Positions 24,424-64,000 of a DNA stretch of 64,000 nt are shown here, one piece after another. Below the pieces are notes generated by a model, which was given only the letters and a program-made list of their open reading frames with translations, ran no database searches and was not told where the DNA came from. The DNA is taken from positions 160,001 to 224,000 of the forward strand of contig CAVRGP010000002.1 of NCBI GenBank assembly GCA_963720755.1, given 5' to 3'. Within the stretch, counting starts at the first letter, position 1. The number at the start of each line of letters is the position of its first letter. The position numbers were made by a program, and so were the translations under genes. The DNA is from an uncultured Chloroflexia bacterium. Its GTDB lineage: Bacteria > Chloroflexota > Limnocylindria > Limnocylindrales > CSP1-4.

Positions 24424-24699
24424 TCAATCCGACTTCCGGGTCAGGTCCTCGTCAGCTCCGTTGCCCGGTGGCTGGTCGCGTTCGGTCGCACGCATGGCGC
24501 CAAGGGCCGACTCGAAGAGCGCCGGATCTTCTCGACGGTAGGGGACGTTGACGACGACGGTATGCGGCCGGCCGAGGAGCATCGACTTGACCCGCTTTGC
24601 CGCCTGGTTGTACAGGAGGCGCTCCCACCAGCTGCGGGCGACGTATTCGGGGACGCTCGACAGCGGCCGTCCGAACACGATGGCCCGGGCACGCGCCAC
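24424..24699 (-). pseudogene. Collapsed remnant of a second KimA-like APC permease (N-terminal motif joined to C-terminal tail)
   Basis: AIVFGRPLSS resembles the neighbour's N-terminal GVFFGRPLAS; it is followed directly by VPEYVARSWWERLLYNQ..VNVPYRR, which resembles the neighbour's C-terminal LPEYVGRHWWDQMLYNQ..ADVPYRR. Confidence 0.75.
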
Positions 24700-44677: not shown

Positions 44678-45943
44678 TCAGGCCCCCGAACCGCGCTGGA
44701 TCATCCCGGCCGCGACCGTTCTGTTCGTCCCTTCGTCGACCAGGACGAAGGCACCGGTCTGGCGGTTCGTCTGATAGGCGTCGACGAACAGCGGCTGGGT
44801 CACCCGAAGCTGGATCCGGCCGATCTCGTTGAGGGCCAGCTCCGTCGCGTCTTCCACCCGGTGCAGGGTGTTGACGTCGATCCGATAGGAAAGCTCCTTG
44901 ACGACGGCCCGGGCCCATCGCGTCGTGTGCTTGATCGCGTACCGACGGCCCACCATCAGCGACGCACTCTCGTCCATCCAGCAGACCTGGGCGTCGACAT
45001 CCTGGACGACCGTCGGCAGGTTGTGGGGACGGCAGATCATGTCGCCCCGACCGATGTCGATGTCATCTGCCAGGGTGATGGTGACGGCCATCGGCGGGAA
45101 CGCCTCCTCGACCGGACCGTCGGCCGTGTCGATGCTCGCGATCGTCGATTCGAGGCCGCTGGGCAGGGCCATGATCCGATCTCCCGGTCGCAGGACGCCC
45201 GAAGCGACGGTGCCGGCATATCCGCGGTAATCGATGACCTCGGTCGATTGCGGCCGCAGGATGTACTGGACCGGGAAGCGGACGTCGACGAGGTTCCGGT
45301 CGCTCGCGACGTGCAATCGCTCGAGGTGGCTCAGGAGCGTGGCGCCCTCGTACCACGGCGTGTTCGGGGACCGGGTGACGACGTTGTCGCCGAGCAGGGC
45401 CGAAACCGGGATGAAGGTCATGTCGCGGACGCGAAGGCGGGTGGCGAACTCGCCGAACTCGGCCCGGATGGATTCGAACACCGATTCGGAGAAGTCCACC
45501 AGGTCCATCTTGTTGACGCACACGACGAGATGCGGCACGCCGAGCAGGGTGGAGATGAAGGCGTGGCGGCGGCTCTGCTCGGTGATCCCCCGGCGCGCAT
45601 CGAGCAGGATGACGGCGACATCCGCGGTCGACGCCCCCGTGACCATGTTGCGCGTGTACTGGATATGCCCGGGCGTGTCGGCGACGATGAATTTGCGTCG
45701 AGGCGTCGCGAAGTAGCGGTAGGCGACGTCGATGGTGATGCCCTGCTCCCGCTCCGCACGGAGGCCGTCGGTGATCAGGGCGAGGTCGGTGTAGTCATTA
45801 CCCCGGTCGCGGCTGACTCGCTCGACCGCGTCCAGCTGGTCCGTGAACAGCGACTTGGAATCGAACAACAGGCGACCGATGAGGGTGCTCTTGCCATCGT
45901 CGACGGATCCGGCGGTCGCGAATCGCAGCAGTTCCTGGGACAT
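44678..45943 (-). CDS. cysN: Sulfate adenylyltransferase large subunit (no fused APS kinase)
   Basis: TAGSVDDGKSTLIGRLL, EREQGITIDVAY, DTPGH, NKMD. Confidence 0.95.
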   Translation of the reverse strand: MSQELLRFATAGSVDDGKSTLIGRLLFDSKSLFTDQLDAVERVSRDRGNDYTDLALITDGLRAEREQGITIDVAYRYFATPRRKFIVADTPGHIQYTRNMVTGASTADVAVILLDARRGITEQSRRHAFISTLLGVPHLVVCVNKMDLVDFSESVFESIRAEFGEFATRLRVRDMTFIPVSALLGDNVVTRSPNTPWYEGATLLSHLERLHVASDRNLVDVRFPVQYILRPQSTEVIDYRGYAGTVASGVLRPGDRIMALPSGLESTIASIDTADGPVEEAFPPMAVTITLADDIDIGRGDMICRPHNLPTVVQDVDAQVCWMDESASLMVGRRYAIKHTTRWARAVVKELSYRIDVNTLHRVEDATELALNEIGRIQLRVTQPLFVDAYQTNRQTGAFVLVDEGTNRTVAAGMIQRGSGA

Positions 45944-46845
45944 CAGAAGTAGCCCTCGCGCTTGCGATCTTCCATCGCAGCCTCGCTGACCTTGTCGTCG
46001 CCGCGGGTCGCCCCGCGCTCGGTGATCCGCACGGCGGCGATCTCCTCCACGATCAACTCGACCGTGTGTGCGTTCGACTCGACGGCGGCCGTCAGGTTGG
46101 CGTCGCCGATCGTGCGGTATCGGACGCGCCGGACCTGCGTGAGCTCGCCTGCCCGCAGCGGGATGAACTCGTTGACCGCGTAGAGCATCCCGTCGCGTTC
46201 GACGACCTCCCGATCGGCCGCGAGATACAGCTCGGGGATGGCGATCCGCTCGGACGCGATGTACGTCCAGACGTCCAGTTCCGTCCAGTTGGACAAGGGG
46301 AAGACCCGGATCGACTCGCCGGGGAAGACCCGGCCGTTGTAGAGATTCCAGATCTCCGGACGCTGGTTGCGCGGATCCCATTGGCCGAATTCGTCACGGA
46401 ACGAGAAGACGCGTTCCTTCGCGCGCGCCTTCTCCTCGTCGCGTCGGCCACCGCCGAACAGGGCGTCGAACTTGTAGCGCTCCACGGCCTCGAGCAGGAC
46501 GCCCGTCTGGATCCGGTTCCTCGATCCGTTGGGCTCCTCCCGCACCAGCCCTCGCTCGATCGCATCCTGGACCGACGCCACCACCAGCTGCAGGCCGAGC
46601 TCCTCGATCCATTTGTCGCGGAAGGTCAGGACCTCCGGGAAGTTGAGCCCGGTATCGATGTGCATGATCGGGAACGGGATGCGCGCGGGAGCGAACGCCT
46701 TGCGAGCGATGTTGAGCATCACGATCGAGTCCTTGCCACCGGAGAAGAGGAGGCAGGGCCGCTCCATCTCGGCGGCGACCTCGCGGAAGATATGGATGCT
46801 TTCCGCTTCGAGACTTCGCAGTTGGGTCAGGACGTGCGTGTTCAT
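45943..46845 (-). CDS. cysD: Sulfate adenylyltransferase small subunit
   Basis: LFSGGKDS, RRDEEKARAKER, QRPEIW, MEDRKREGYF. Confidence 0.96.
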   Translation of the reverse strand: MNTHVLTQLRSLEAESIHIFREVAAEMERPCLLFSGGKDSIVMLNIARKAFAPARIPFPIMHIDTGLNFPEVLTFRDKWIEELGLQLVVASVQDAIERGLVREEPNGSRNRIQTGVLLEAVERYKFDALFGGGRRDEEKARAKERVFSFRDEFGQWDPRNQRPEIWNLYNGRVFPGESIRVFPLSNWTELDVWTYIASERIAIPELYLAADREVVERDGMLYAVNEFIPLRAGELTQVRRVRYRTIGDANLTAAVESNAHTVELIVEEIAAVRITERGATRGDDKVSEAAMEDRKREGYF

Positions 46846-47660
46846 CGGCGTGCGTCACGCACGTCATCGAGTCCGACCGCCGCGAGCAGCCGAGTCAGGA
46901 ACGGGCCGACCGCGGGCTCGCAGACCAGCAGGTCCGGGCTCCACGGGTCGGCCTGGTTGAACTCGAGCATCGTCCCATCCACACGCGTGGCGATCAATCC
47001 TGCGGCCCGCGCGACTGCGACCGGAGCAGCGGAATCCCACTCCCATTGACCACCGGCGTGGACATAGGCGTCCACGGTCCCATCGACCACCGCCATCGTT
47101 TTGACCCCGGCCGAGCCCATCGGCACGAGTTCGACGGCGGTGATGGCGGCGAGCCGGTCGACGATGGCCGGCGGGCGGCTGCGGCTCACGGCGAGACGAA
47201 GCGGACGACGTCCCGCCGCGACAGCCTCCCGATCCGGTCGCGTCCCGGCCGTGTCACCGGATGAGTGGACCCGGTCTCGGGCCGGCAGCGCCACCGCCGC
47301 ATCGGTCAGGCCCCGGCCGCGTTGCCACAGGGCGAGATGGACGGCGAAGTCATCCCGCCAACCGCCGTCCTCGGTGCGCTCGGCGAATTCGCGCGTGCCG
47401 TCGAGTGGATCGATGATCCAGACCCGCTCCGCATCGAGCCGCCGGCGATCGTCGACCGCCTCCTCCGACAGGATCGGATCGCCCGGTCGAGCCGCCGCAA
47501 GGGCCGCCGCAAGGAAGCGTTGGGCGCTGGCATCCCCGGCGGCCCGGAGTTCCGCCACCGGCCCGCTGAAACGACCGGACTCCACCTGGGCTCGGACGTC
47601 CAGCAGGATCTGGCCCGCGCCGACCGCCAGATCGACGGCCAGTCGGGTGTCATCGGTCAT
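46842..47660 (-). CDS. cysQ: 3'(2'),5'-bisphosphate nucleotidase
   Basis: ILSEE, WIIDPLDGTREF, SRS, GSAGVK, WEWDSAAP. Confidence 0.9.
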   Translation of the reverse strand: MTDDTRLAVDLAVGAGQILLDVRAQVESGRFSGPVAELRAAGDASAQRFLAAALAAARPGDPILSEEAVDDRRRLDAERVWIIDPLDGTREFAERTEDGGWRDDFAVHLALWQRGRGLTDAAVALPARDRVHSSGDTAGTRPDREAVAAGRRPLRLAVSRSRPPAIVDRLAAITAVELVPMGSAGVKTMAVVDGTVDAYVHAGGQWEWDSAAPVAVARAAGLIATRVDGTMLEFNQADPWSPDLLVCEPAVGPFLTRLLAAVGLDDVRDARR

Positions 47661-47862
47661 CGGCAGGTCGACCTGGGCGTGGTCGATCACGAGCGCTCGG
47701 ACGTCTGGTTCACGGGCGGATACCTTGCTGCGGAGTCTGTCGGGAGTCTGTAGTTTGAACGAACGACGTGATCTGGGCACACAGCCGTCCATATAAGCGT
47801 CGCAGGTATCATCGCCGCATGCCAGCCACGCCATCACGCGGCCCGATCCGACTGCCCCCGGC

Positions 47863-48813
47863 ATGACCTTCGATGCCCCGTTGGCGGCGGCGGGCCTCCT
47901 CATCGGCATCGTCGTTGGTCTGACCGGGATGGGCGGCGGAGCGTTGATGACGCCCGTCCTGGTGTTCTTCTTCAAGATCGACCCTCTGACGGCGATCTCC
48001 AGCGATATCGTCGTCAGCCTGTTCATGAAACCAGCCGCCGCGGTCGTCCATCTTCGGCGCGGCACGGTCAATCTCGAGCTTGTCGGCTGGCTCTGCCTCG
48101 GGTCCGTTCCGGCCGCATTCCTCGGTGCCTGGTTCATCAGCTTCGTCGCACTCGATGAAGGGTCGAGCACGCTCATCAAGCAGGTGCTCGGGGTGGCGCT
48201 GCTGGTCGCGACCGCTGGCCTGATCGTGCGCAGCCTGCTTCAGATGTGGCGCAAACGACTGCCGCTCGGCGAGGGTCCGGCCGTCGTCGTCCGGCCGCCG
48301 ATCGTCAAGATCCGGCGGGTCCCGACGGTGGCCCTTGGGGCGCTCGGTGGCTTCATGGTCGGGGTGACCTCGGTCGGTGCCGGCTCCATCATCATCGTCA
48401 TCCTGCTGATGATCTACCCGACCCTGAAGGCATCCTCGCTGGTCGGAACGGACCTCACCCAGGCCATCCCGCTGGTCGCCGCCGCGGCGGCCGGCCACCT
48501 GCTCTTCGGCAGCTTCTCGGCGATGGTTGCGGCCTCATTGCTCGTCGGCGCGGTGCCGGGCGCCTGGGTCGGGGCGCAGATCAGCAGCCGCGCTCCAGGC
48601 GGGATCATCCGGCGCGTCCTGGCGGTCCTCCTGCTGGCGACCGGCCTGAAGCTGCTCGGGGTCGACACGATCTGGGTCATCGCGGCGGCGATCATGGCGA
48701 TCTTCCTCGGGACGGTCATCTGGGCGCTGATCCGGTCGCGGGTCGTGCCCAAGCCCGGCCTGGCGCGGAACACGGAGGCGGCGCTTCCCGGCGCTGACGG
48801 CGGGCCACGGTGA
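47863..48813 (+). CDS. TauE/SafE (TSUP) family sulfur-oxyanion transporter
   Basis: [28 protein letters not shown]. Confidence 0.9.
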
Positions 48814-50141
48814 GCGCGAGCGATAGCGCCGACGACCTGACGCCCTTCGCCGATACCCCACGCCTCGTCCTCGACGGCGACGGCCTCGACGTCCTCGAAC
48901 TCGCGCTCGGCGGTGCCATCCCCGGGCTCCCGGCGTCGGTCGGCGTCACGTCGGATGGGGAGTGGGTGCTGACCGATCGGGAGAACTCGCCGCTGGCCCA
49001 TCTTCGCGTCGACCCCGCCGGCGACTCGACCTTGCGTCCGCTCCGTCCGATGCCCACCGGCGTCGGACCGCGATGGGATCCGGCGGTGCGGCGACCGGCC
49101 CGGGACGTGCGGGGCGAGCTACGCGACCTGATCGGATCCGGTCCGGTCGTCGGCTTCGTGGTGGACGAGCTCCCGACGGTGTCGGATCTGCAGGCGGTCC
49201 TCGAACGCGTACGGGCCAGCGACGCTGCGGCTGTTCTGTGGGCCGTGCCGGTCGCTCGTCACGGAGATGGGCCGGGTCCCGTCAGTGGCGCCGCACTGGC
49301 GCGGGCGAGTCGGTCATTGGCGGAGACCCTCGCATCCGACCTCGCCGGCCCGCCGGTGATCCCGTTGATCGTGCCCTGGCCGGGGCGCGGGCGCGACGGC
49401 CAGCTCGACGTCATCCCCATCGACGAGGTGATAGCGGCCTACGGCGCGACGGAGACTCGGCACGTGCGCGATCTGCGCAGCCCGGCGACCGACCGGCGCC
49501 TGGCGGGCCTGGACGACGCCTTCGAGCGAGACGTAAGCGCCATCTATCCGCCGGCTTCCGCGGCCGAATTCATCGCCGCCCGCGAGCGCCGCGTCCGCAG
49601 CGTCCGCAGCGGTGCCGTCATCTTCTTCACCGGGCTGTCTGGCTCCGGCAAGTCGACCATCGCCCGGGCGCTCAGCGACGCCCTGAGGGATCGAGGGTCG
49701 CGGGTCACGTTGCTCGACGGAGACGAGGTTCGCCAGCACCTGTCGGCCGAGCTCGGCTTCGACGCGGCATCGCGCGAACGCAATATCGACCGGATCGCCT
49801 TCGTGGCCTCACTCGTTGCCGCGCATGGTGGCATCGCCGTGGCGGCGCCGATCGCGCCATTCGCGGCCGGCCGCCAGGCGGCTCGAACCATGGCCGAGAA
49901 CGAAGGCGTGTTCCTGCTCGTGTACGTCGACACACCACTGGCCGTGTGCGAGGCCAGGGATCGCAAGGGCCTGTATGCCGAGGCTCGGGCCGGTCGCATC
50001 CCCGACTTCACGGGGATCAGTTCGCCGTACGAGCACCCGGACGATGCGGATGTCGTGATCGACACGTCCACGACGTCCGTTGAGGAGGCGGTCGCGGTCA
50101 TCATCGAGGCGCTGGAGCGAGCTGCCGGTCCGGGGCGGTAG
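48810..50141 (+). CDS. cysC: Adenylyl-sulfate kinase fused to a degenerate ATP-sulfurylase-like N-terminal region
   Basis: C-terminal [31 protein letters not shown]; N-terminal '[17 protein letters not shown]' is Sat-like but lacks the QxRN/HxxH motifs. Confidence 0.88.
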
Positions 50142-50147
50142 GCCCCG

Positions 50148-51395
50148 TCAGCTGCGGTCGCGACGACGGCCGAGTCGTGTCAATCGGCGGCGGAGACCAT
50201 GGGCTCGGCGTCCGATGGCCGTTCGGATCCGGACCCACAGGACCACCGCGACCTGGATCGTGGGGATCCCCACGAGCTCCGCGGGCTCACCCGGCACGCG
50301 CGAAGCCGACGAGCCTGATGACGTGGATGTGCGCGCAAGTCCACTCGCAACGACCACGCCCATGGCGGTCGCTGCGGCGGTCCGAGGTGAGATGTGCAGC
50401 TCTGCTGCGGCGGCCCCTGACGTTGATGCGGGCGGTAGTCGGGTCAGGTTCTCATGGTCGCCGACGATCCGGACGCCTGAGGCGACGATCGCGTCGACCA
50501 TCTCCCGGCCGACCGCCCCGGCTCGCTCGAGGGCCCATCGCGGTGTCTCCAACCGAGGCTCGCCCGTGGCGGCGGGGTGGGACTTGACGTAGCTCGCGGC
50601 CCCGAAGCGCATCACGGTGGTATGGAGCGGCCGGCTCAGGCCCGCATCGAAGAACTGCGCGTTGAAGGCGCGGACGATCTCGATCTCGGGCAGCGTCATC
50701 GATCGATTGCTGACGTCGTCCTCGGCGGCGAGGGTTCCCACCCGCAGTCCGAGCAGCTGCTCGAACACCCGCAGGACCATGTCGTGATCCTGATCGTCGA
50801 GGGCGACGACGGTGACGTTGTCCGGCCCGACGACCTCGGTCCAACGGGCGACGAGCTGATCGTGGCGGTGTCGACGCCAAAAGACCGGTTTCAGCCTCGA
50901 CGGGTCGTTGAAGACCGCGTCCAGCCAGTCATCGAACGGCCTTCGCTCGCCGCTCTGCACGAATTGTTGCCACTGGGAGGAGAGGATCCGGCTGAGCGGC
51001 CGCAGCGTCACCACGATATGGACCCGTTCGCCACCCAGGTCCTCGACGATCGTCCGGATGGTGTCCGGTTTGGCCTCGGACAGGAACTCGCTGCTGATGA
51101 CCACCCGCGGCTCGCGCGCGCGTCGCACCTCTCCGACCAGGTGCCGCCACCAGCGCATCGATGGGACCTTGCCGGTGCTCGGGCTCGCATTGCCGACGAT
51201 CGCCTGCACCGCCGCCACGGGTTGGCGGGTGGGGCCGGCATAGTGGACACCCTGGGCGGAGACAGCCTCGCGGTTGCCGTGGAAGGCGCCCTGCAGGTAC
51301 GTCGTCCCGGTCTTGGGTGGGCCGATGTGGATGAGCCGGGTGCCCGCGGGCAGGAGCAGGTCGTCCGATCCGTCCGGTCCGGCAGTGGCGGTCAT
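50148..51395 (-). CDS. Sulfotransferase-like P-loop protein, array copy A (distal, most divergent C-terminus)
   Basis: HIGPPKTGTTYLQ (5'-PSB-like), ISSE, VTLRP..SQWQQ (3'-PB-like), NRS. Confidence 0.78.
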   Translation of the reverse strand: MTATAGPDGSDDLLLPAGTRLIHIGPPKTGTTYLQGAFHGNREAVSAQGVHYAGPTRQPVAAVQAIVGNASPSTGKVPSMRWWRHLVGEVRRAREPRVVISSEFLSEAKPDTIRTIVEDLGGERVHIVVTLRPLSRILSSQWQQFVQSGERRPFDDWLDAVFNDPSRLKPVFWRRHRHDQLVARWTEVVGPDNVTVVALDDQDHDMVLRVFEQLLGLRVGTLAAEDDVSNRSMTLPEIEIVRAFNAQFFDAGLSRPLHTTVMRFGAASYVKSHPAATGEPRLETPRWALERAGAVGREMVDAIVASGVRIVGDHENLTRLPPASTSGAAAAELHISPRTAAATAMGVVVASGLARTSTSSGSSASRVPGEPAELVGIPTIQVAVVLWVRIRTAIGRRAHGLRRRLTRLGRRRDRS

Positions 51396-52606
51396 CGGGA
51401 CCGTCCGACCAGGCGGCGGGTGCGCCGCCCGGCGGCGGTGACGATCCGCCGTCCGACGATGCCGACCATGTCGAGGGTCGAGACCCTGGCCAGGGCGATC
51501 GGTTCGACCGATGTGCGGGTGACCTGACCATCGGGATCGGGGACGAGGCCACTGGCCCGCAGGACGCTCATCGCCACGGTCGCCGCAAGGTCCGGGCTGA
51601 TCTCGGGGTCGGGCTGCACGCCGTCGACGAGCCGGCTGGTCAGGACCGGTCGGAGGTGCTCGGGATCGCCGACGATCCGAACACCCGACGCGGTGATCGC
51701 ATCGACCATCTCCCGGGCGATCCCGGCGGTCCGGTCGAGCGCCCACTGGGGGGTCTCGATCCGGGCCTCGCCGGGACCCGGCTCGCGGGCCTTCATCCGG
51801 GTGGCTGCGCCAAAGGCCATGACCTTCGTATGGAGCGGACGACTCAGGCCCGCGGCGAAGAACTGCTCGTTGAACGCTCGGACGATCTCGATCTCGGCCC
51901 AGGTCATCGACCGGTTCGTCCGGTCGCCATCGGCCACCAGCGTGCCTGCCCGCAGCCCGAGCAGCCGCTCGAACACCCGCAGGACCATGTCGTGGTCCCG
52001 CTCATCGAGGGCGATGACCGTGACGTTCTGTGGCCCGACCACCTCGGCCCAGCGGGCGATCAGCTGATCGTGGCGATGGGGATACCAGAACCACTTCGTG
52101 TGTCGTTCCTCTTGATCCCCGAAGATCTGCTCGAGGAACTGGTCGAACGACGTCCGCAGGCCGGCCTGGACCGTCTGTTGCCATTGAGACGGGATCGACT
52201 TGGCCAGCGGCCGGAGGGTCACCGCGACATGGACACGATCCGGACCCAGGTCATCGACGATCGTTCGGATGGTCTCGGGTTTGGCTCGAGCCAGGCGCTC
52301 GCTGCTGAGCAGGACCCGTCGCTCACCGGCGTTGCGGATCTCGTCGACCAGATCGCGCCACTTCGCGATCGGTGGCACCTCGCCGGTCCTGGTGTTCGAC
52401 AGGCCGAGGATGCTGAGGACCGCCGCCACGGGTTGGCGGGTGGGGCCGGCATAGTGGACACCCTGGGCGGAGACAGCCTGGCGGTTGCCGTGGAAGGCGC
52501 CCTGCAGGTACGTCGTCCCGGTCTTGGGTGGGCCGATGTGGATGAGCCGGGTGCCCGCAGGCAGGAGCAGGTCGTCCGATCCGTCCGGTCCGGCAGTGGC
52601 GGTCAT
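51392..52606 (-). CDS. Sulfotransferase-like protein, array copy B
   Basis: Same motifs; ATGA overlaps with both neighbours. Confidence 0.78.
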   Translation of the reverse strand: MTATAGPDGSDDLLLPAGTRLIHIGPPKTGTTYLQGAFHGNRQAVSAQGVHYAGPTRQPVAAVLSILGLSNTRTGEVPPIAKWRDLVDEIRNAGERRVLLSSERLARAKPETIRTIVDDLGPDRVHVAVTLRPLAKSIPSQWQQTVQAGLRTSFDQFLEQIFGDQEERHTKWFWYPHRHDQLIARWAEVVGPQNVTVIALDERDHDMVLRVFERLLGLRAGTLVADGDRTNRSMTWAEIEIVRAFNEQFFAAGLSRPLHTKVMAFGAATRMKAREPGPGEARIETPQWALDRTAGIAREMVDAITASGVRIVGDPEHLRPVLTSRLVDGVQPDPEISPDLAATVAMSVLRASGLVPDPDGQVTRTSVEPIALARVSTLDMVGIVGRRIVTAAGRRTRRLVGRSR

Positions 52607-53835
52607 CGGGACCGTCCGACCAGGCGGCGGGTGCGCCGCCCCGCGGCGGTGACGATCCGCCGTCCGACGATGCCGACCATGTCGAGGGTCGAGACCCTGG
52701 CCAGGGCGATCGGTTCGACCGATGTGCGGGTGACCTGACCATCGGGATCGGGGACGAGGCCACTTGCCCGCAGGACGCTCATCGCCACGGTCGCCGCAAG
52801 GTCCGGGCTGATCTCGGGGTCGGGCTGCACGCCGTCGACGAGCCGGCTGGTCAGGACCGGTCGGAGGTGCTCGGGATCGCCGACGATCCGGACGCCCGAG
52901 GCGGTGATCGCATCGACCATCTCCCGGGCGATCCCGGCGGTCCGGTCGAGCGCCCACTGCGGCGTCTCGATCCGGGCCTCATCGGGACCCGGCTCACGAG
53001 CCTTCATCCAGGCGGCCGTCCCGAAGCGCATGAACCTGGTGCTCATGACCCTGGTGTGCACGGCTCGGTCCAGGCCCTCGGCGAAGAACTGCGCGTTGAA
53101 CGCGCGGACGATCTCGATCTCGGCCCAGGTCATCGACCGGTTCGTCCGGTCGCCATCGGCCACCAGCGTGCCTGCCCGCAGCCCGAGCAGCTGCTCGAAC
53201 ACCCGCAGGACCATGTCGTGGTCCCGCTCGTCGAGGGCGATGACCGTGACGTTCTGTGGCCCGACCACCTCGGCCCACCGGGCGATCAGCTGATCATGGC
53301 GATGCCGCCGCCAGAAGAGAGATCTGGAGCTGTCGCTGTCCGGGTCCCCGAAGATCTGCTCGAGGAACTGGTCGAACGACGTCTGCAGTCCCGTCTGGAC
53401 ATGTTGCTGCCATTGCGACGGCAGGATCTTGCTGAGTGGTCGGAGGGTCACCACGACGTGCACCGCATCCGGACCCAGGTCCTCGACGATCGTCCGGATG
53501 GTTTCCGGCTGCGCGTGGGCCAGGCGTTCATTGCTGAGCAGGACCCGTCGGTCACCGGCGGCGCGGATCTCGTCGACGAGATCCTGCCACTTCGCGATCG
53601 GTGGGACCTCGCCGGTCACCGGGTTCCGCATCCCCATGACGGCCTGGACCGCCGCGACGGGTTGGCGGGTGGACCCTGCATAGTGGACACCCTGGGCGGA
53701 GACGGTCGCCTGCCCCGAACGAAAGGCGCCCTGCAAGGTCGTCGTCCCGGTCTTGGGTGGGCCGATGTGGATGAGCCGGGTGCCCGCGGGCAGGAGCAGG
53801 TCGTCCGATCCGTCCGGTCCGGCAGTGGCGGTCAT
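52603..53835 (-). CDS. Sulfotransferase-like protein, array copy C
   Basis: Same motifs; ATGA overlaps. Confidence 0.78.
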   Translation of the reverse strand: MTATAGPDGSDDLLLPAGTRLIHIGPPKTGTTTLQGAFRSGQATVSAQGVHYAGSTRQPVAAVQAVMGMRNPVTGEVPPIAKWQDLVDEIRAAGDRRVLLSNERLAHAQPETIRTIVEDLGPDAVHVVVTLRPLSKILPSQWQQHVQTGLQTSFDQFLEQIFGDPDSDSSRSLFWRRHRHDQLIARWAEVVGPQNVTVIALDERDHDMVLRVFEQLLGLRAGTLVADGDRTNRSMTWAEIEIVRAFNAQFFAEGLDRAVHTRVMSTRFMRFGTAAWMKAREPGPDEARIETPQWALDRTAGIAREMVDAITASGVRIVGDPEHLRPVLTSRLVDGVQPDPEISPDLAATVAMSVLRASGLVPDPDGQVTRTSVEPIALARVSTLDMVGIVGRRIVTAAGRRTRRLVGRSR

Positions 53836-55064
53836 CGGGACCGTCCGACCAGGCGGCGGGTGCGCCGCCCCGCGGCGGTGACGATCCGCCGTCCGACGAT
53901 GCCGACCATGTCGAGGGTGGAGACCCTGGCCAGGGCGATCGGTTCGACCGATGTGCGGGTGACCTGACCATCGGGATCGGGGACGAGGCCACTTGCCCGC
54001 AGGACGCTCATCGCCACGGTCGCCGCAAGGTCCGGGCTGATCTCGGGGTCGGGCTGCACGCCGTCGACGAGCCGGCTGGTCAGGACCGGTCGGAGGTGCT
54101 CGGGATCGCCGACGATCCGGACGCCCGACGCGGTGATCGCATCGACCATCTCCCGGGCGATCCCGGCGGTCCGGTCGAGCGCCCACTGCGGCGTCTCGAT
54201 CCGGGCCTCGCCGGGACCCGGCTCGCGAGCCTTCATCCGGGTGGCCATGCCAAAGGCCATCACCCCATGATGCATGACCTTCGTATGGAGCGGACGGCTC
54301 AGGCCCTCGGCGAAGAACTGCGCGTTGAACGCCCGGACGATCTCGATCTCGGCCCAGGTCATCGACCGGTTCGTCCGGTCGCCATCGGCCACCAGCGTTC
54401 CCGTTCGAAGCCCGAGCAGCTGCTCGAACACCCGCAGGACCATGTCGTGATCCCGCTCGTCGAGGGCGATGACCGTGACGTTCTGCGGCCCGACCACCTC
54501 GGCCCACCGGGCGATCAGCTCATCATGCTGCTGGCGGAACCAGAAGAGTCGCCTCGATCGGTCGCTGTCCGGGTCCCCGAAGATCTGCTCGAGGAACTGG
54601 CTGAACGACGTCTGCAGTCCCGTCTGGACGTGCTGTTGCCATTGCGACGGCAGGATCTTGGCTAGTGGCCGAAGGGTCACCGCGACGTGGACCCGATCCG
54701 GACCCAGGTCCTCGACGATCGTCCGGATGGTCTCCGGCTGCGCGTGGGCGAACCGTTCGCTGCTGAGCAGGACCCGCCGGTCACCGGCGCCATGGATCTC
54801 CTCGACGAGATCCCGCCACTTCGCGATGGATGGGATCTCGCCGGTCCGTGGACTGGGACGACCGAGCGCGGCCAGGACGGCCTCGATCGGTTGGCGGGTG
54901 GGGCCGGCATAGTGGACACCCTGGGCGGAGACAGCCTCGCGGTTGCCGTGGAAGGCGCCCTGCAAGGTCGTCGTCCCGGTCTTGGGTGGGCCGATGTGGA
55001 TGAGCCGGGTGCCCGCGGGCAGGAGCAGGTCGTCCGATCCGTCCGGTCCGGCAGTGGCGGTCAT
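53832..55064 (-). CDS. Sulfotransferase-like protein, array copy D
   Basis: Same motifs; ATGA overlaps. Confidence 0.78.
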   Translation of the reverse strand: MTATAGPDGSDDLLLPAGTRLIHIGPPKTGTTTLQGAFHGNREAVSAQGVHYAGPTRQPIEAVLAALGRPSPRTGEIPSIAKWRDLVEEIHGAGDRRVLLSSERFAHAQPETIRTIVEDLGPDRVHVAVTLRPLAKILPSQWQQHVQTGLQTSFSQFLEQIFGDPDSDRSRRLFWFRQQHDELIARWAEVVGPQNVTVIALDERDHDMVLRVFEQLLGLRTGTLVADGDRTNRSMTWAEIEIVRAFNAQFFAEGLSRPLHTKVMHHGVMAFGMATRMKAREPGPGEARIETPQWALDRTAGIAREMVDAITASGVRIVGDPEHLRPVLTSRLVDGVQPDPEISPDLAATVAMSVLRASGLVPDPDGQVTRTSVEPIALARVSTLDMVGIVGRRIVTAAGRRTRRLVGRSR

Positions 55065-56295
55065 CGGGACCGTCCGACCAGGCGGCGGGTGCGCCGCCCG
55101 GCGGCGGCGACGATCCGCCGTCCGACGATGCCGACCATGTCGAGGGTCGAGACCCTGGCCAGGGCGATCGGTTCGACCGATGTGCGGGTGACCTGACCAT
55201 CGGGATCGGGGACGAGGCCACTTGCCCGCAGGACGCTCATCGCCACGGTCGCCGCAAGGTCCGGGCTGATCTCGGGGTCGGGCTGCACGCCGTCGACCAG
55301 CCGGCTGGTCAGGACCGGTCGGAGGTGCTCGGGATCGCCGACGATCCGAACACCCGACGCGGTGATCGCATCGACCATCTCGCGGGCGATCCCGGCGGTC
55401 CGGTCGAGCGCCCACTGCGGCGTTTCGATCCGGGCCTCGTCCGGGACCCGGCTCGCGAGCCTTCACATACGTCGCGACACCGAAGTATGCCCGCACGCCG
55501 TGGTGCATGACCCTGGTATGCACGGCTCGGTCCAGGCCCTCGGCGAAGAACTGCGCGTTGAACGCGCGGACGATCTCGATCTCGGCCCAGGTCATCGACC
55601 GGTTCGTCCGGTCGCCATCGGCCACCAGCGTGCCCGTTCGAAGCCCGAGCAGCTGCTCGAACACCCGCAGGACCATGTCGTGGTCCCGCTCGTCGAGGGC
55701 GATGACCGTGACGGTCCGGTCCGACCACCTCGGCCCACCGGGCGATCAGCTCGTCATGCTGCTGGCGGAACCAGAACGGCGACATCGATATATCGCCATC
55801 CCGATCCTCGAAGAGCTGCTCGAGGAACGGTCCCAGGGGTGTCCTCGCGCCCGATTGGACCGCCTGCTGCCATTGCGACGGCAGGATCTTGCTGAGTGGG
55901 CGAAGGGTCACCGCGACGTGGACCCGATCCGGACCCAGGTCATCGACGATCGTCCGGATGGTTTCGGGTTTGGCGAGCGATATGCGCTCGTTGCTGAGCA
56001 GGACTCGCCGGTCACCGGCGCCGCGGATCTCGTCGACCAGATCCCGCCACTTCGCGATGGAAGGGATCTCGCCGGTCATGGGAGCAGGCATTCCCAGGAC
56101 GGCCTGGATCCCGGTCACCCGCCGATGGGACAAACCGGCATAGTGGACACCCTGGGCGGAGACGGCCTCGCGGTTGCCGTGGAAGGCGCCCTGCAGGTAC
56201 GTCGTCCCGGTCTTGGGTGGGCCGATGTGGATGAGCCGGGTGCCCGCGGGCAGGAGCAGGTCGTCCGATCCGTCCGGTCCGGCAGTGGCGGTCAT
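55061..56295 (-). pseudogene. Sulfotransferase-like protein, array copy E, with two frameshifts
   Basis: Coding sequence is split across three frames: about 2 nt missing near 55712-55722 and 1 nt extra near 55440 relative to sister copies; may be sequencing error. Confidence 0.7.
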
Positions 56296-57536
56296 CGGGA
56301 CCGTCCGACCAGGCGGCGGGTGCGCCGCCCGGCGGCGGTCACGATCCGCCGTCCGACGATGCCGACCATGTCGAGGGTCGAGACCCTGGCCAGGGCGATC
56401 GGTTCGACCGATGTGCGGGTGACCTGACCATCGGGATCGGGGACGAGGCCACTTGCCCGCAGGACGCTCATCGCCACGGTCGCCGCAAGGTCCGGGCTGA
56501 TCTCGGGGTCGGGCTGCACGCCGTCGACCAGCCGGCTGGTCAGGACCGGTCGGAGGTGCTCGGGATCGCCGACGATCCGGACACCCGACGCGGTGATCGC
56601 ATCGACCATCTCCCGGGCGATCCCGGCGGTCCGGTCGAGCGCCCACTGGGGGGTCTCGATCCGGGCCTCGCCGGGACCCGGCTCGCGGGCCTTCATCCGG
56701 GTCGCTGCGCCAAAGGCCATGACCTTCGTATGGAGCGGACGGTCGAGGCCCTCGGCGAAGAACTGCGCGTTGAACGCTCGGACGATCTCGATCTCGGCCC
56801 AGGTCATCGACCGGTTCGTCCGGTCGCCATCGGCCACCAGCGTTCCCGTCCGAAGCCCGAGCAGCTGCTCGAACACCCGCAGGACCATGTCGTGATCGCG
56901 CTCGTCGAGGGCGATGACCGTGACGTTCTGTGGCCCGACCACCTCGGCCCAGCGGGCGATCAGTTGATCGTGGCGATGGGGATACCAGAACAGTCGCCTC
57001 GATCGGTCGCTGTCCGGGTCCTCGAAGATCTGTTCAAGGAATGTCTCAAACGGCGTCTTCACGCCCGATTGGACCGCCTGCTGCCATTGCGACGGCAGGA
57101 TCTTGCTGAGTGGGCGCAGGGTCACCGCGACGTGGACCCGATCCGGACCCAGGTCATCGACGATCGTCCGGATGGTCTCGGGTCGTGCGTGCGTCAGCCA
57201 CTCATTGCTGAGCAGGACCCGTCGGTCACCGGCGCCGCGGATCTCGTCGACCAGATCCCGCCACTTCGCGATCGGCGGGATCTCGCCGGTCCTTCGGCTC
57301 CGCATCCCCATGATCGCCTGGACCGCCGCAACGGGTTGGCGGGTGGGACCGGCATAGTGGACACCCTGAGCGGAGACAGCTTCGCGGTTGCCGTGGAAGG
57401 CCCCCTGCAAGGTCGTCGTCCCGGTCTTGGGTGGGCCGATGTGGATGAGCCGGGTGCCCTCGGGTAGGAGAAGGGCCGCAGGTCTCGAACCTGACGGGGA
57501 TACGTCGATCGTCTGCGTGACGCTGCTGTCCACCAC
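56292..57536 (-). CDS. Sulfotransferase-like protein, array copy F (first in operon, unique N-terminus)
   Basis: 414 aa; HIGPPKTGTTTLQ etc.; C-terminal ~110 aa the same as copies B-E. Confidence 0.78.
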   Translation of the reverse strand: MVDSSVTQTIDVSPSGSRPAALLLPEGTRLIHIGPPKTGTTTLQGAFHGNREAVSAQGVHYAGPTRQPVAAVQAIMGMRSRRTGEIPPIAKWRDLVDEIRGAGDRRVLLSNEWLTHARPETIRTIVDDLGPDRVHVAVTLRPLSKILPSQWQQAVQSGVKTPFETFLEQIFEDPDSDRSRRLFWYPHRHDQLIARWAEVVGPQNVTVIALDERDHDMVLRVFEQLLGLRTGTLVADGDRTNRSMTWAEIEIVRAFNAQFFAEGLDRPLHTKVMAFGAATRMKAREPGPGEARIETPQWALDRTAGIAREMVDAITASGVRIVGDPEHLRPVLTSRLVDGVQPDPEISPDLAATVAMSVLRASGLVPDPDGQVTRTSVEPIALARVSTLDMVGIVGRRIVTAAGRRTRRLVGRSR

Positions 57537-57591
57537 CGGCCCGAGGATACCGGAGATGCGCCCAGCGCCGCGGTCTCAGGTCACGGGAATC

Positions 57592-57623
57592 AAAAAGCGG
57601 CCCGACCGGTCGGTCGGGCCGCT
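57592..57623 (-). terminator. Intrinsic terminator downstream of the cold-shock gene
   Basis: AGCGGCCCGACCG-xx-CGGTCGGGCCGCT perfect hairpin followed by a T-run on the minus strand. Confidence 0.85.
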
Positions 57624-57630
57624 CAGAGGG

Positions 57631-57834
57631 TCAGGCGGCGCGGACGTTCCCGGCGCGCGGCCCCTTCGGGCTCTGCTCGATCTCGAATTCCACTCTCTCG
57701 CCGCCGCTGAGACGGTCGAAATCGAGTGAACTGTCCATCCCGGCGCGATGGAAGAAGTATTCCTTCTCATCCTCGCCGACGATGAATCCGAAGCCGCGGT
57801 CGCTGACGACCTTCTTGATGGTACCGGTGGCCAT
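57631..57834 (-). CDS. Cold-shock domain protein
   Basis: MATGTIK..RGFGFI..EYFFH..KGPRAGNV; GGAGG RBS. Confidence 0.95.
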   Translation of the reverse strand: MATGTIKKVVSDRGFGFIVGEDEKEYFFHRAGMDSSLDFDRLSGGERVEFEIEQSPKGPRAGNVRAA

Positions 57835-58009
57835 GATGACCTCCAACACTTTCCGAACACAGATTGCAGATCGCACGGTCTGTTCGAAAAGGGGGTCGAC
57901 CAGGCGGAGTGTCGTCGCACAGTGCGGCGAGCAACAACAGTAGCACGGATGTTCGGGGTCCCTCGCCTGTGACGGGAGGCTACCGACTGGCGCTTGTATC
58001 GATGCGCCC

Positions 58010-59224
58010 GTGGATCTCACCCTCCAGGAGCTTGCGCGTCAGAGCCAGTCGGATGTCGCGTTCGTCGAGCGCCTGATCCGCCTCGGTGTGGTCACGGAGT
58101 CACCGGACGGGTTCGTGCCCGGCGACATCTGGAAGGTCCGCACCCTCCGAGCGATCGAAGCCGGTGGCGGGACGGCGGAGGCGGTCGCGGAGGCGGTCCG
58201 TGCGGGACGGGTCAACCTTGACTTCCTCGGCTCGCTCTTGCCGGAGCCAGGCCCGCTCAGCGCTCGAACCTTCCGGGAGTTCATCGCGGCGCAGGGTCCG
58301 AGGGGCGACCTGGTAGGCCCGATCCTCGAGATGCTGGGACTGCCACTACCACCCCTCGACCTGCCGATGCGGGCCGACGACGACGCGATGTTGACGCGCT
58401 TCCTCGATCAGTGGGCCCAGAGTCCAGAGATCGCGCTGCGCGCGGCCCGCCTGATGGGTCAGACGACGCGCGCGACGACCGAAGGATGGACCGGCCTGCA
58501 CTACGAGCTGTTCCGCGGCCTGGGCGGTCCGGATCGCGCCGCCTGGACGCCGGAGTTCCGGGCGCACGAGGAGGAGGTCGCTCGCGACGCGATCGCCCTG
58601 GCCGCCGCCATGCCAGGCTGGCTCATGCACCATCTCGTCGAGCGGATCCTGGCGGCCGATGTCGTGGAGAACCTCGAGATGGGCACGGATCCCTTCGCCG
58701 AACGGCGGCAGGACCTTCCTCCGGGTGCGCGGGTCCCCGCCATCGCGTTCGTCGACGTATCGGGCTTCACCGCACTGACCGAGGAGGCCGGCGACCGGGC
58801 CGCCTCCGACTCGACGACGGTCTTCGAGGAGGTCGTGACGCGGGCAGCGGCGGCGCATGGCGGTCGAGTCGTGAAGCTGCTCGGTGACGGCGCGCTCCTC
58901 CACTTCGTGGATGCGACCGTCGCGATCGATGCGATCCTCGTCGTGCGGGACGCGCTCCGCCCCCGCGGGTTGCAGTCGCACGCCGGGATCGATTGCGGGC
59001 CGATCGTTGAGCGCGATGGCGACGTGTTCGGTCGAACGGTCAATCGAGCCGCACGCCTGGCGGCGTTGGCCCGACCGGGGGAGATCGTCGTCAGTGAGGC
59101 GGTCGCCCTGGTCTCGCCTCGAGCGCGTCCGGCGCTGGAGGCGATGGGCCCGCAGGAACTGAAGGGCATCGACCTGCCGCTGGCCGCCTATCGGCTGGCG
59201 GGCGACCGCTCGCCCGATCGGTGA
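58010..59224 (+). CDS. Class III adenylate/guanylate cyclase with N-terminal regulatory (HTH-like) region
   Basis: FVDVSGFT, VKLLGDG, GDVFGRTVNRAARL, LKG. Confidence 0.88.
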   Translation: MDLTLQELARQSQSDVAFVERLIRLGVVTESPDGFVPGDIWKVRTLRAIEAGGGTAEAVAEAVRAGRVNLDFLGSLLPEPGPLSARTFREFIAAQGPRGDLVGPILEMLGLPLPPLDLPMRADDDAMLTRFLDQWAQSPEIALRAARLMGQTTRATTEGWTGLHYELFRGLGGPDRAAWTPEFRAHEEEVARDAIALAAAMPGWLMHHLVERILAADVVENLEMGTDPFAERRQDLPPGARVPAIAFVDVSGFTALTEEAGDRAASDSTTVFEEVVTRAAAAHGGRVVKLLGDGALLHFVDATVAIDAILVVRDALRPRGLQSHAGIDCGPIVERDGDVFGRTVNRAARLAALARPGEIVVSEAVALVSPRARPALEAMGPQELKGIDLPLAAYRLAGDRSPDR

Positions 59225-59244
59225 GGGCGGCTCGGCGGTCGTGA

Positions 59245-60116
59245 TCAGGTCGCCGAGCTTCCGCCCCGATCCAGCGAAACGGCCGTTCCGCTGACCCGGA
59301 TCCCGCCAGTCGTCGTCCGGGACCTCGACCTCGATCACTGCTCGGTCGACCCATCTCGACGCCCTGGCTGATCGTGAACCGGGCGGGTGGCACCAACTCG
59401 CCGCGCCACCGCAGATAGGCACCGAACGCAGCCGCCGCGGCACCGGTGGCGGGATCCTCGACGACGTTGCCGACGGGGAACGGATCGCGCGCACGGAAGT
59501 GGTCGGCGGTCTCGCGCCAGACGAGTTGGACCGTGGTCAGGTCCGCACCCAGCATGATCGAGCGCAGTCGCTCGAAATCGTAGGCGAGCGACGCGAGCCG
59601 GGCGTAGTCGGCCGCGGCAAGGATCAGGTGCTCCGCTCCGGCATAGCTCACCGCCGGCGGCAGCGCCGGATCCAGCTCGCCACGGCCCCATCCGAGGGCA
59701 GCCAGCGCCTCGCTCAGCAGCTCTGCCTCGGCCTCGCGCGTCCGGGGCGGGACGGACGTCAGCGTCGCCCGGACATGTCCGTCCGGACCCACGCTCCGTA
59801 TCGAGCGTCACCAAGCCGTCATTCGTCGTCAGGACGAAGTGGCCGATCCCCGACCGCTCGGCCAGGGCGACCCCGGCCGCGATCGTGGCGTGGCCGCAGA
59901 ACGGGACTTCCGCGGCCGGGCTGAAGTAGCGGACCCGATAGGCGGTGGCCCGCCACTCCCGTCGAGGGCGAGGAAGGCCGTCTCGGAGTACCCGACCTCG
60001 GTCGCGATCCGCTGCATGTCGGTCGGGTCGGGCAGTTCGTTCCCGATCCAGACCCCGGCCGGGTTGCCACCGGTCGGATCGAGCGTGAACGCGGCAAGGC
60101 GGAGCAGCTCGGCCAT
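59245..60116 (-). pseudogene. PhzF family isomerase, multiply frameshifted
   Basis: AFT..GGNPAGV..SETAF, EVPFCGHAT, EDPATGAA, QGVEMGRPS and IRVSGTA lie in different frames. Confidence 0.75.
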
Positions 60117-60193: not shown

Positions 60194-61775
60194 ATGCCAT
60201 CGACGTTGCGCCTGCTCGATCGCCGTCGGGGACTTCGGCTGCTTGTCGTGACGATCCCGTCCCTGGCGGTCGCCACGTTGGTGGTTGGCGCGCTGGAGAC
60301 CTGGCTGGGCGTACCGAACGCGTCGATCGTCTACCTGGCGGCCGTCGTCCTGAGTGCGATCCTGGCCGGCACCTCGGGCGCCATCTTCGCAGCCATCGGG
60401 TCGGTCATCCTGTACGACTTCCTGTTCACCGGCCCCGAGTACACCCTTCGGATCAGCGATCCGGATGAGTGGCTGAGCGTGATCCTGTTGCTCTTCGTCG
60501 GCGTGGTGGTCGGTCAGCTGGCGGCGCTCCAGCGGTCGCGCACCGATGAAGCCAGGTCGCGGGAGCGGGAGGCGAGGGCGCTCTTCCGGGTTAGCCGCGC
60601 CCTGGCAACGCGTACGTCGACCTCGGCAGCGCTCGAGACGATCGCCGACGTGCTCGTCGGTGAGACGGAGATGTCACGAGTCTGGGTCGTCCTCGACACG
60701 GATGGGTCAGAGCGCACCGTCGTGGATACCGATGGTGGTCCGCGGCCCGCGTTGTCCGCCGTTCAGCACGTGCTTCAGCGGATGCCAGGAGACGAGCCGG
60801 CGCACTGGCAGCGCGTCCACCAGCCCGCGCGCCCGGCGACTCGCGCCACGAATGACGCTGGCCTCCCTGCCTATCGCATCAGGATCGAGACGGCCGACAT
60901 GGTCCTCGGGTCGATCTGGTGCACCCGCGATCGCGCTGCATGGCGACCCGGACCAGACCGAAACGCGGCTGCTGGCGGCCGCCGCTGACCAGACCGGACA
61001 GGTGATCGCGCATGATCGGCTGGCGGCAGAAGCCCGCGCACTCGAGGTCATCCGCCAGGGCAACGAGATCAAGGCGGCGCTCCTGCAGTCGGTGTCCCAC
61101 GACCTGCGGACGCCCTTGGCGACCATCCGAGCCGCCGCAGGAACGATGCGACCGGGCCGCCACGCGCGGCCCGAGGATCTGGAGGAGAGCGTCGACCAGA
61201 TCGACCGCGAGGTCGACTACCTCAATCGCCTCGTCACCAATCTTCTCGACCTCAGCCGGATCGACGCCGGTGCGCTTCGCGTCGACCGAGACGTGTTCGA
61301 ACTCGACGACATCGTCCGGCGAAACCTCGATCGCATCGCCCCGCGCCTGAACACGCGGCGGGTCGACGTGGACCTGCTCGCGCCGCCGGTGGCCGTCGAC
61401 CCGGCCCTGTTCGACCAGGTGGTGGCGAACGTGCTCGACAATGCCATCAAGTACACGGGTGACACGACGCTGGTGCGGCTGCGGGCCTCGTCGCTTGACG
61501 GTGAGCCGTTCGTGCGTCTGACGATCGAGGACGCAGGACCGGGCGTTCCCGAGGACGCCATCCCGAACGTCTTTGACAAGTTCTACCAGGTCCCCGGCGT
61601 CGCGACCGGCTCGCGGTCCGGGACCGGGATCGGTCTCGCCGTCGTTCGCGGCCTCATGGTCGCGATGGGCGGACGGGTCGTCGCACGCCGGAGCGACCTC
61701 GGTGGCCTTGCCATCGACCTCGATGTCCCCGTCGCCACGGTCCCTGCCGAGCTCGAACCATCGGGGATGGGTTGA
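60194..61775 (+). pseudogene. KdpD-like sensor histidine kinase (DUF4118 TM + GAF-like + HisKA/HATPase), frameshift near 60935
   Basis: N-half in ORF 60194-60988 (YDFLF..P.YTL); C-half in another frame (VSHDLRTPL, NAIKY, D.GPG, GTGIGL). Confidence 0.8.
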
Positions 61776-62828: not shown

Positions 62829-64000
62829 TCGGCGGTCGTCGCCTCCTGGCCGGCCGGAAGGTCGCCGATCGGCGGTCCGCCTCGAACGGCCACACACCCG
62901 CTACTTCCGCTACGCCGGGCCACGCACACTCGTCGCAAAGCCCGAGGCATCGGCGCCTCGAACGCCGTTCGGGCGGACGCTCGCGCGTGGGAAGGCGGTG
63001 CTGTTCGGTCGCCCATTGTCGATCCACGAGGAGATCAGTCAGCGCCTGAATGTCTTCACGAGCCTGTCGATCTTCGCGTCGGACAACATCAGCTCCTCGA
63101 CCTACGTGACCGAGGAGATCATGCGGGTCTCATCGTCGCCGGCGCGGGCGCCCTCGCGCTCTCCATGCCGATCACGACAGGCATCGTCATCGTGCTCGCG
63201 ATCGTGGTCACGAGTTACCGGCAGACGATCGCTGCCTATCCATCCGGCGGCGGCTCGTACATCGTCGCGAGCGACAACCTCGTGCAAGTCTCGACGGCGG
63301 TCCTGCTCGTCCTCGCTGCGAACACCTCGTTCGCCGACTTCCCTCGCCTGTCCAGCATCCTCGCGCGCGACGGGTTCCTGCCGCGGGTCTTCCAATACCG
63401 CGGCGATCGGCTGGCGCAGACGGCTCGCGATCAACGGGATCGGCGCGGTCACGACGGGAGTCGTTGCGGTGGAAGTTGCGTTCTCGAAGTTCCTGCTCGG
63501 CGCGTGGGTCGTCCTCATCCTCATCCCGATCCTCATCGCGATGATGCTGTTCATCCACCGGCAGTACAGCTCGTCTGCGGCCAAGCTGACCGTTCGGGCC
63601 GACATCCCGATCCCGGCGCCCCGTCGCGAAGAACGTGTCGTCGTGCCCGTCCCGGGCATCGATCGGGCGGTCATCCAGGCCATCAATGTCGGGCGTTCGA
63701 TCGCCGGCGATGTCCAAGCCGTCCTGGTGTCGGACGATCCGGATGTCGCCGCGCACGTCCGGGAGCGGTGGCAGGTCCAGCTCGCGGAGGTGCCACTGGT
63801 CGTGGTCGAGTCGCCGTATCGGGCGCTCGTGGGGCCGCTGCTCGCCTATCTGGACGTGCTCGATGACTCCTGGCCACCAGACAAGGAGGCGCCGATCACG
63901 TTCGTGGTGATCCCGGAATACGTCGCCCGAAGCTGGTGGGAGCGGATCCTCTACAACCAGTCGGCGCGGCGGTTGCGGGGCGCGTTGCTCGGTCGTCGTC
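62825..64000 (+). pseudogene. KimA-like APC permease, frameshifted and internally deleted (runs off window)
   Basis: MIGGRRLLAGRK parallels the 24701-26710 N-terminus; YPSGGGSYIVASDNL is joined straight to VQVSTAVLLVLAANTSF; SPYR and PEYVARSWWE tail present; several frame changes. Confidence 0.8.

Follow-up and report, generated by a model that had tools for sequence, protein, structure and literature searches.

A tandem array of predicted sulfotransferase genes with a near-uniform scaffold and mosaic variable blocks in an uncultured Chloroflexia bacterium

INTRODUCTION

In Helicobacter pylori, the adjacent and highly similar genes jhp0562 and beta-(1,3)galT, which encode surface-glycan enzymes, recombine within one strain, and the chimeric alleles that result are functional; the passages that describe them name no dedicated recombinase (PMC5381349). 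Here we analyse a comparable case, an array of six tandem genes for predicted sulfotransferases (copies A to F) at positions 50148–57536 of a 64,000-nucleotide stretch of DNA from an uncultured Chloroflexia bacterium (GenBank assembly GCA_963720755.1, contig CAVRGP010000002.1, forward-strand positions 160,001 to 224,000). The whole stretch is referred to as the window, and positions are counted from its first nucleotide. Unlike the array, the H. pylori system consists of two genes, belongs to a host-adapted pathogen and involves a different enzyme fold. Small blocks with alleles that recur across genomes, which are present here, are not described in the passages on jhp0562/galT (PMC5381349). 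The array is probably the product of tandem expansion, in which crossover and gene conversion homogenise the scaffold of the gene, selection keeps old alleles of the acceptor site, and tracts that overrun a block create new combinations.

Several other systems share parts of this pattern. In the bacterial RF1 and RF2 genes, as in the array, conversion affects the part whose function both paralogues have in common, and the specificity parts stay distinct; unlike the array, these genes are unlinked, and the events are described as rare and ancient, confined to one tract, with neither tandem expansion nor reshuffling of specificity (PMC4530459). Intragenomic recombination moves specificity segments between the adenylation domains of nonribosomal peptide synthetases (mcyB/mcyC) and leaves network-like mosaics (PMC8097286). 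The GRINS of polyketide synthases hardly differ within a cluster but have diverged from one cluster to another; they are described as duplicated regions of >500 bp at >80% identity with GC and TA skews above 0.15 (PMC8256042). In both cases, however, the recombining units are modules of assembly-line enzymes and not stand-alone genes. A search with access to little subscription literature found no publication on the present sulfotransferase family or array, and nothing on point about gene conversion between tandem sulfotransferase genes in bacteria, as judged by titles and the openings of abstracts.

Three further kinds of system generate variants by dedicated means. Antigenic-variation cassettes (Borrelia vlsE/vls, Neisseria pilE/pilS) combine one expression locus with silent partial donors and switch rapidly. 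Diversity-generating retroelements employ a reverse transcriptase, and their variation falls on codon positions 1 and 2 with few synonymous changes. Shufflons and related site-specific inversion systems consist of inverted recombination sites and a linked recombinase.

RESULTS

Layout of the array

The six copies are direct repeats on the minus strand with a spacing of 1208–1233 nt. They are transcribed in the order F, E, D, C, B, A, and each stop codon overlaps the next start codon as ATGA.

Copy F, 56292–57536, minus strand: 414 residues, first gene of the array, unique N-terminus; block 1 C-like, QQAVQSG E-type, DPDSDRSRRLF D-type, FWYPHRHDQ and block 4 B-type
Copy E, 55061–56295, minus strand: two frameshifts in the assembly, near 55716 and 55440
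Copy D, 53832–55064, minus strand: 410 residues; blocks 1 and 2 D-type, QQHVQTG C-type, FWFRQQHDE E-type, block 4 with the E-type MHHGV insertion within a B-type frame
Copy C, 52603–53835, minus strand: 410 residues; C-type blocks 1, 2 and 4 (MSTRFMR insertion)
Copy B, 51392–52606, minus strand: 404 residues; block 4 without insertion, like the single X gene of two-gene relatives
Copy A, 50148–51395, minus strand: 415 residues; older second paralogue (type Y)
Homogenised scaffold (example), 53723–54203, minus strand: 3′ end of D, ATGA overlap and 5′ end of C

Copies B–F are 86–91% identical at the DNA level over ~1200 nt, and A shares 74–78% identity with them (72–76% over the aligned core), being homogenised with the array over its first ~190 nt only. 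The scaffold around the gene–gene overlaps reaches 98–99% identity among the five junctions. The differences between copies are concentrated in short blocks, whose positions are given for copy D.

Block 0, 54966–54983, minus strand: KTGTTT versus KTGTTY, 0 nt differences within each allele class
Block 1, 54821–54904, minus strand: approximately residues 54–85, after strand 2
Block 2, 54725–54761, minus strand: approximately residues 102–112, after strand 3 and the conserved E103
Block 3, 54524–54677, minus strand: approximately residues 135–181, from the end of the 3′-phosphate-binding helix to the FW helix
Block 4, 54223–54314, minus strand: approximately residues 255–277, with length variants of 0, 18 or 21 nt

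We take block 0 to lie at the end of the predicted 5′-phosphosulfate-binding loop. Block 3 comprises three sub-blocks with changing partners, and variation is also present at T/Y33 and at residues 37–45.

Membership in the GRINS class was considered and rejected: the duplication in B–F is of the extent and identity described for these repeats, but the two skews of the array are 0.072 and 0.069, and no copy exceeds 0.09. A shufflon was likewise rejected, as the repeats are direct and the three tyrosine recombinases of the genome lie on other contigs. All copies are in direct orientation, with no inverted pair inside the array among the repeats listed. Searches of the 93.6%-complete genome with tblastn and blastn found no paralogue outside the array, apart from one 51-nt match (E 1e-4).

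Recombination between the copies

An initial annotation of the window had reported that block alleles are shared between copies in combinations that no single tree explains, and had named homologous recombination as the simplest driver. All ten of its motifs are present in exactly the copies it named; two of those in E, past 55716, lie out of frame owing to the assembly frameshift of this copy. In nine of the ten sharings, the carriers differ by 0–3 nt at the DNA level. The exception is FWRRHRHDQ of A and C, in which 5 of 27 nt differ and which resembles the family consensus FWxRHRHD. For these reasons a recent exchange was rejected for this motif, which is probably an ancestral retention.

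Among B–F, 242 sites are variable and 96 informative, and 54% of the informative pairs are incompatible. The pairwise homoplasy index (PHI) was 0.441 against a null value of 0.545 (p=1e-4). In 120 clonal simulations with block-wise rate variation (60 on star trees and 60 on ladder trees, following the observed rate profile), z was at most 2.7, compared with the observed 6.2, although the simulated data contained fewer informative sites than the real ones (32–49 on average versus 96). The trees of the individual blocks conflict, and by approximately unbiased (AU) tests no single tree fits all blocks: blocks 1 and 4 each reject four of four alternative trees, block 3 rejects three of four, and block 2, the shortest, rejects one of four. 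The patchwork between the copies is therefore real, and both PHI and the conflicting block trees support homologous recombination between copies as its source. The absence of a visible recombinase or reverse transcriptase, as first described, also held: no such family matched among the 64 open reading frame (ORF) references of the window that were scanned, and RecA is present in the genome.

Independent contigs at the repeat junctions

A mosaic of this kind could also arise if long-read polishing across the repeat had blended a small number of true alleles into chimeras. This was examined with Logan contigs of four DNA runs (X1–X4) from one study. Since the source sample may be among these runs, the contigs are independent in method but not necessarily in sample; they are moreover assembled contigs and not raw reads, which leaves some room for an artefact. 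The head-to-tail junction between units is present in contigs of three of the four runs (X1, X3 and X4), and a 912-nt contig (X3 record 17) connects an X-type 3′ end with A across the B-to-A junction. A 175-nt contig of X2 (record 12, 56934–57108) spans QQAVQSG, DPDSDRSRRLF and FWYPHRHDQ of F with 1 difference. D and B have just 7 nt in common at the mosaic join of F, so this join cannot have been invented by a 31-mer graph. The join of block 3b to FWFRQQH in D is carried by a loose end of X1 at 56984, and X4 record 19 connects block 4 of C with its block 3. Contig cover of block 3b in E is low.

The contigs also point to local errors in the consensus. The extra base of E near 55440 is absent from E-type contigs (X1 record 3 and X3 record 18), and near 55716 two additional bases are present in X1 and X2 contigs, although these contigs may belong to other copies. 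The two frameshifts of E are likely consensus errors, and E is therefore probably intact. At three sites of F (56703, 56745 and 56991), a private synonymous base is absent from the contigs that cover it; these bases may be assembly errors or strain differences. While the unsupported bases of F and at least one frameshift of E fit faulty polishing, the spanned joins and unit junctions do not, and the same architecture and alleles are present in the related locus L036 and in proteins from ENA. The consensus holds local errors or strain differences, yet the mosaic is real; for F and D the artefact explanation is largely refuted, and for the array as a whole we regard it as very improbable.

One X2 contig (record 14) joins block 1 of F to block 2 of C, a combination missing from the six copies. 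Between these blocks, 33 nt are identical in F and C, so this contig may be a graph chimera.

Homogenised scaffold and older block alleles

Related loci were found in genomes labelled Chloroflexia or Limnocylindrales. The distribution of the family is uneven: of the genomes searched, it is present in 8 of 131 from the genus and 55 of 401 from the order, usually as 2–4 old copies. The distant relatives G104, L021, L022 and L037 contain two genes, X followed by Y, at 68–72% identity without long identical tracts, and G147, of the same genus, contains a multi-copy array at ~80% identity. The most informative locus is L036, which has the same flanks as the array and contains four genes, namely x1, whose start is of the F type, followed by x2, x3 and Y. 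In the 3′ scaffold (375 columns), B–F are 1–2% apart and x1–x3 of L036 are 0–1% apart, compared with 16–17% between the two genomes, and x1–x3 cluster in the scaffold tree with a support of 100. Blocks 1, 2 and 4b, in contrast, are 14–56% apart within the window genome, except for the B–F pair in 4b (2%). In these three blocks x1 is nearest to C (distances 0.19, 0.22 and 0.15) and x2 to E (0.36, 0.37 and 0.23), and in blocks 1 and 2 x3 is nearest to D (0.25 and 0.30). Peptides such as PIEAV..LGRPS, HRRV, MSTRFMRFG and MHHGVR recur in L036, P0005, P0027 and P0001, and in a third lineage the proteins P0001 and P0006 show the D type again and a further mixture. From these comparisons, the block alleles appear older than the split of the genomes, with some combinations lasting and some new.

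The same contrast is seen in the divergence values, which were calculated for B, C, D and F only, with block limits set by eye: synonymous divergence (dS) is 0.067 in the C-terminus, 0.15 in the scaffold and 0.67 in the blocks, where nonsynonymous divergence (dN) is 0.21 and dN/dS 0.31. Variable sites fall on codon positions 1, 2 and 3 in the numbers 44, 38 and 75. Given the high dS and low dN/dS, the block alleles read as old and not hypermutated. A diversity-generating retroelement was rejected on the codon positions, on the excess of dS over dN and on the lack of a reverse transcriptase: RVT_1 had no match in the 93.6%-complete window genome (G000), while the control for this search was positive in 3 of 14 genomes.

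The initial annotation had likened the array to antigenic-variation cassettes, which is not supported. The array does resemble them in that conserved stretches flank variable blocks, which allows segmental exchange. However, it has no silent donors, and all copies are full length and ATGA-coupled. A cassette system is therefore not supported: there is no single expression site with silent partial donors and no sign of dN exceeding dS, nor of fast turnover in the contigs of four runs from one study apart from one possible chimera. The proposed generation of new block combinations stood in part, as such combinations arise in F, in D and in the relative P0006, whereas fast shuffling within populations is represented by a single ambiguous contig, the X2 contig described above.

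These observations bear on another explanation, in which the array is an active combinatorial diversifier whose blocks are reshuffled within populations, new combinations being favoured by frequency-dependent selection (for example by phages that bind a sulfated surface glycan). F, D and P0006 can be read as new combinations of a persistent allele pool, the allele set of x1 is divided between C and F in the window genome, and the module, which only some of the kin possess, is adjacent to glycan genes in certain relatives. The X2 contig joining F and C blocks would be a further case, but it can be a chimera, and the other readable block alleles among the X1–X4 contigs listed match B–F. The persistence of C-, D- and E-type combinations across genomes, the high dS with a dN/dS of 0.31 in the blocks and the lack of silent donors also speak against it, and we consider such a diversifier unlikely. 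A bolder form, in which the array would be a 'sulfation-code' generator drawing on a pool of acceptor-site alleles that predates the species, is maintained by balancing selection and is exchanged in new combinations between strains for phage escape, likewise appears unlikely to us.

Three database proteins of 610–676 residues (P0001, P0014 and P0029) join two copies; they probably represent frameshift read-through across tandem genes and not true fusions.

Identical tracts in other loci

We examined 44 loci, 42 of which have two or more copies. L025, L026, L030, L045, L053, L091, L094, L097, L105 and L107 were left uncounted as repeats, narrow locus sets were counted via L005 only because the others repeat loci already included, and some single-copy loci lie outside the count. 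The apparent 100% pairs of L049, L055 and L110 were excluded, as they are overlapping windows of one gene. Among the counted loci, L021/L022, L041/L048 and L059/L060 are not independent.

Identical tracts of at least 60 nt between paralogues are present in 5 of the 42 multi-copy loci: the window, L036, L042, L047 and L092. In each of the last three there are two paralogues, the longest identical tracts measure 258, 264 and 154 nt, respectively, and blocks 1, 3 and 4 are skipped. The tracts of L042 and L047 are 100% identical within a genome and 86% identical between genomes, while the skipped parts are 53–60% identical within a genome and 72–78% between genes of the same type. In line with this, the tract columns cluster by genome (support 100 for L042 and 97 for L047) and the non-tract columns by paralogue type (support 100). 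L042, L047 and L092 thus represent a second lineage with this pattern, and L046 carries the same two paralogue types without recent homogenisation. The dominant effect of recombination is the homogenisation of the scaffold, and the pattern is that of concerted evolution, in which tandem paralogues are kept alike by interlocus gene conversion or by unequal crossover.

Predicted fold and location of the blocks

The model of copy D is confident, with a predicted local distance difference test score of 90.2. By Foldseek it matches the Alicyclobacillus sulfotransferase 3rnl of the Protein Data Bank (PDB; E 1.9e-6). VIA Z values are 15.0–15.8 for NDST1, 3-OST-1/3/5 and 3rnl, compared with 10.7 for the next kind; the root-mean-square deviation (rmsd) in these matches is 3.4–4.1 over 222–237 aligned residues (for NDST1, Z 15.8, rmsd 3.7, 235 aligned). 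Copy D shares the PKTGTT loop and R132/S140 with these heparan-sulfate sulfotransferases and 3rnl, but differs from them in its low identity (10–18%) and in an extra C-terminus of ~80 residues that ends in a long basic helix. P26, K28–T32, R132 and S140 are at least 90% conserved among 106 aligned proteins and stand at the expected structural elements. The PKTGTT loop after strand 1 is presumably the 5′-phosphosulfate motif, and the Arg/Ser after strand 4 the 3′-phosphate motif. Searches of the PDB by sequence gave no matches, either with the protein or with the profile. Weak matches to Sulfotransfer_4 were found for 7 of the 106 family members (best E 0.0008), and Atlas neighbours carry automatic sulfotransferase names. 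The six genes are thus predicted to encode sulfotransferases of the heparan-sulfate-sulfotransferase fold that depend on 3′-phosphoadenosine-5′-phosphosulfate (PAPS). The first description of the patchwork had placed the variants on an enzyme, which agrees with this prediction.

In 3-OST-3, residues named for activity or substrate contact include Lys162, Arg166, Glu184, His186, Asp189 and Arg190, and further Lys215, Gln255, Lys259, Lys368 and Arg370 (PMC8341778). The spacing from K28 to block 1 is similar to that from Lys162 to Glu184–Arg190 of 3-OST-3 (PMC8341778). By order and spacing from K28, the key residues of 3-OST-3 would fall at or next to blocks 1, 2, 3 and 4, and block 1 may line the acceptor site. 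In the model, block 3 follows the end of the helix after strand 4. Block 4 sits in the late helical lid and is the lowest-confidence part of the catalytic-domain model.

Conservation within the family differs between blocks. Majority identity across the family is 0.56 in block 1 and 0.47 in block 3b, the least conserved parts of the catalytic domain, so that constraint there may be relaxed. This would suit a neutral explanation, namely that the array serves dosage amplification and that old alleles were imported by homologous recombination with relatives, the patchwork being a by-product without selection for specificity. The copy number is higher in the window genome than in its kin, and import would also yield alleles common to several genomes. 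In blocks 2, 3c and 4, however, majority identity is 0.74, 0.86 and 0.71, and these blocks are nevertheless polymorphic among the copies. A neutral origin also fits poorly with the identical tracts of L042, L047 and L092, which stop at the same blocks on both sides, and with the x1/C pair, in which distant blocks stay associated across homogenised DNA. We give this explanation little credence.

Gene neighbourhood

PAPS-supply genes (Pfam), 44678–50141: cysN-, cysD- and cysQ-like genes on the minus strand; tauE and the adenosine-5′-phosphosulfate (APS) kinase gene cysC on the plus strand, convergent with the array
Terminator-like hairpin, 57595–57624, minus strand: ends the upstream cold-shock gene, ~60 nt before F

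No sigma-70-like promoter was found in 49900–58200. PAPS genes adjoin array-type genes in most of the 10 related loci scanned, and O-antigen ligase, sugar transferase or glycosyltransferase family 2 (GT2) genes adjoin the family in L086, L087 and L046. The APS kinase (48810–50141) has ~265 extra N-terminal residues without a Pfam match.

In L046, family copies flank a gene (8010–9938) for a GT2 glycosyltransferase that contains a TarS linker domain, which hints at a wall polymer as acceptor. L086 and L087 (G042 and G060, streamlined genomes of ~1.1 Mb, family f2) carry 4–5 deeply diverged copies at 43–53% DNA identity together with PAPS genes, an Rrf2 regulator and tauE, and an O-antigen ligase or sugar-transferase gene adjoins; the family is present in 20 of 42 f2 genomes searched.

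Elsewhere in the window, a PhzF-like gene (59091–60116) and a KdpD-like sensor kinase gene (DUF4118 and HisKA/HATPase; 60194–61775) each appear to be split over two ORFs, probably by long-read frameshifts. A 62-nt inverted match at 85% between 24592–24653 and 63911–63972 probably represents the ends of two permease-like paralogues.

DISCUSSION

The history that we propose would begin with an ancestral operon of two genes, X and Y, that recombined unequally at their shared P-loop region. Such a crossover would produce repeats that join the start of Y to the body of X, and would explain the unique start of F and the unique end of A. Unequal crossover and gene conversion of the RecA type would then keep overwriting the common scaffold, while selection would maintain a number of long-standing variants of those segments that are predicted to form the lining of the acceptor site. 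A conversion tract running across a block would usually destroy a needed specificity and be purged, which could be why at blocks 1, 2 and 4 the C-, D- and E-type combinations have persisted longer than the intervening DNA. Some block-crossing tracts would nevertheless become fixed and create new combinations, as in F and D, so the array may also be a slow source of enzyme variants. The enzymes may differ in the position or residue that they sulfate on a cell-envelope glycan, with PAPS supplied through the neighbouring genes.

Several points weigh against this history. Homogenisation is uncommon, as 37 of the 42 multi-copy loci lack an identical tract over 31 nt, and a shared assembly effect is possible for L036, L042 and L047 because they have one sample label in common. 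The x2–E distances in blocks 1 and 2 (0.36–0.37) are near background, and strong support in the block trees is limited to D–x3 in block 1 (100), with 86 for E–x2 and 60 for C–x1 in block 4. As x3 is nearest to E and not to D in block 4, and block 3 is homogenised in L036, conservation of the combinations is only partial. There is also some circularity in the dS contrast, since the block boundaries were chosen from the same data. As to function, none of the five intact copies matched any Pfam family, sulfotransferases included (E 0.01), the blocks were assigned to the acceptor site from secondary-structure order and spacing and not by superposition, and no envelope-glycan gene was seen beside this array.

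The process itself is already known, and the array is a clean and repeated example of it in an uncharacterised enzyme family. If strains were to reshuffle the blocks quickly, this would add a new way for free-living bacteria to vary their surface, and the 'sulfation-code' reading, if true, would amount to a polymorphism like that of the major histocompatibility complex on a biosynthetic enzyme of a free-living bacterium, rewriting the sulfation of its surface glycan. On the history that we favour, conversion erases all but four short blocks, and the array thereby marks the residues that likely set acceptor specificity. The copies would then be natural chimeras that differ almost only at these residues, which makes the sulfation chemistry of these Chloroflexota directly testable.

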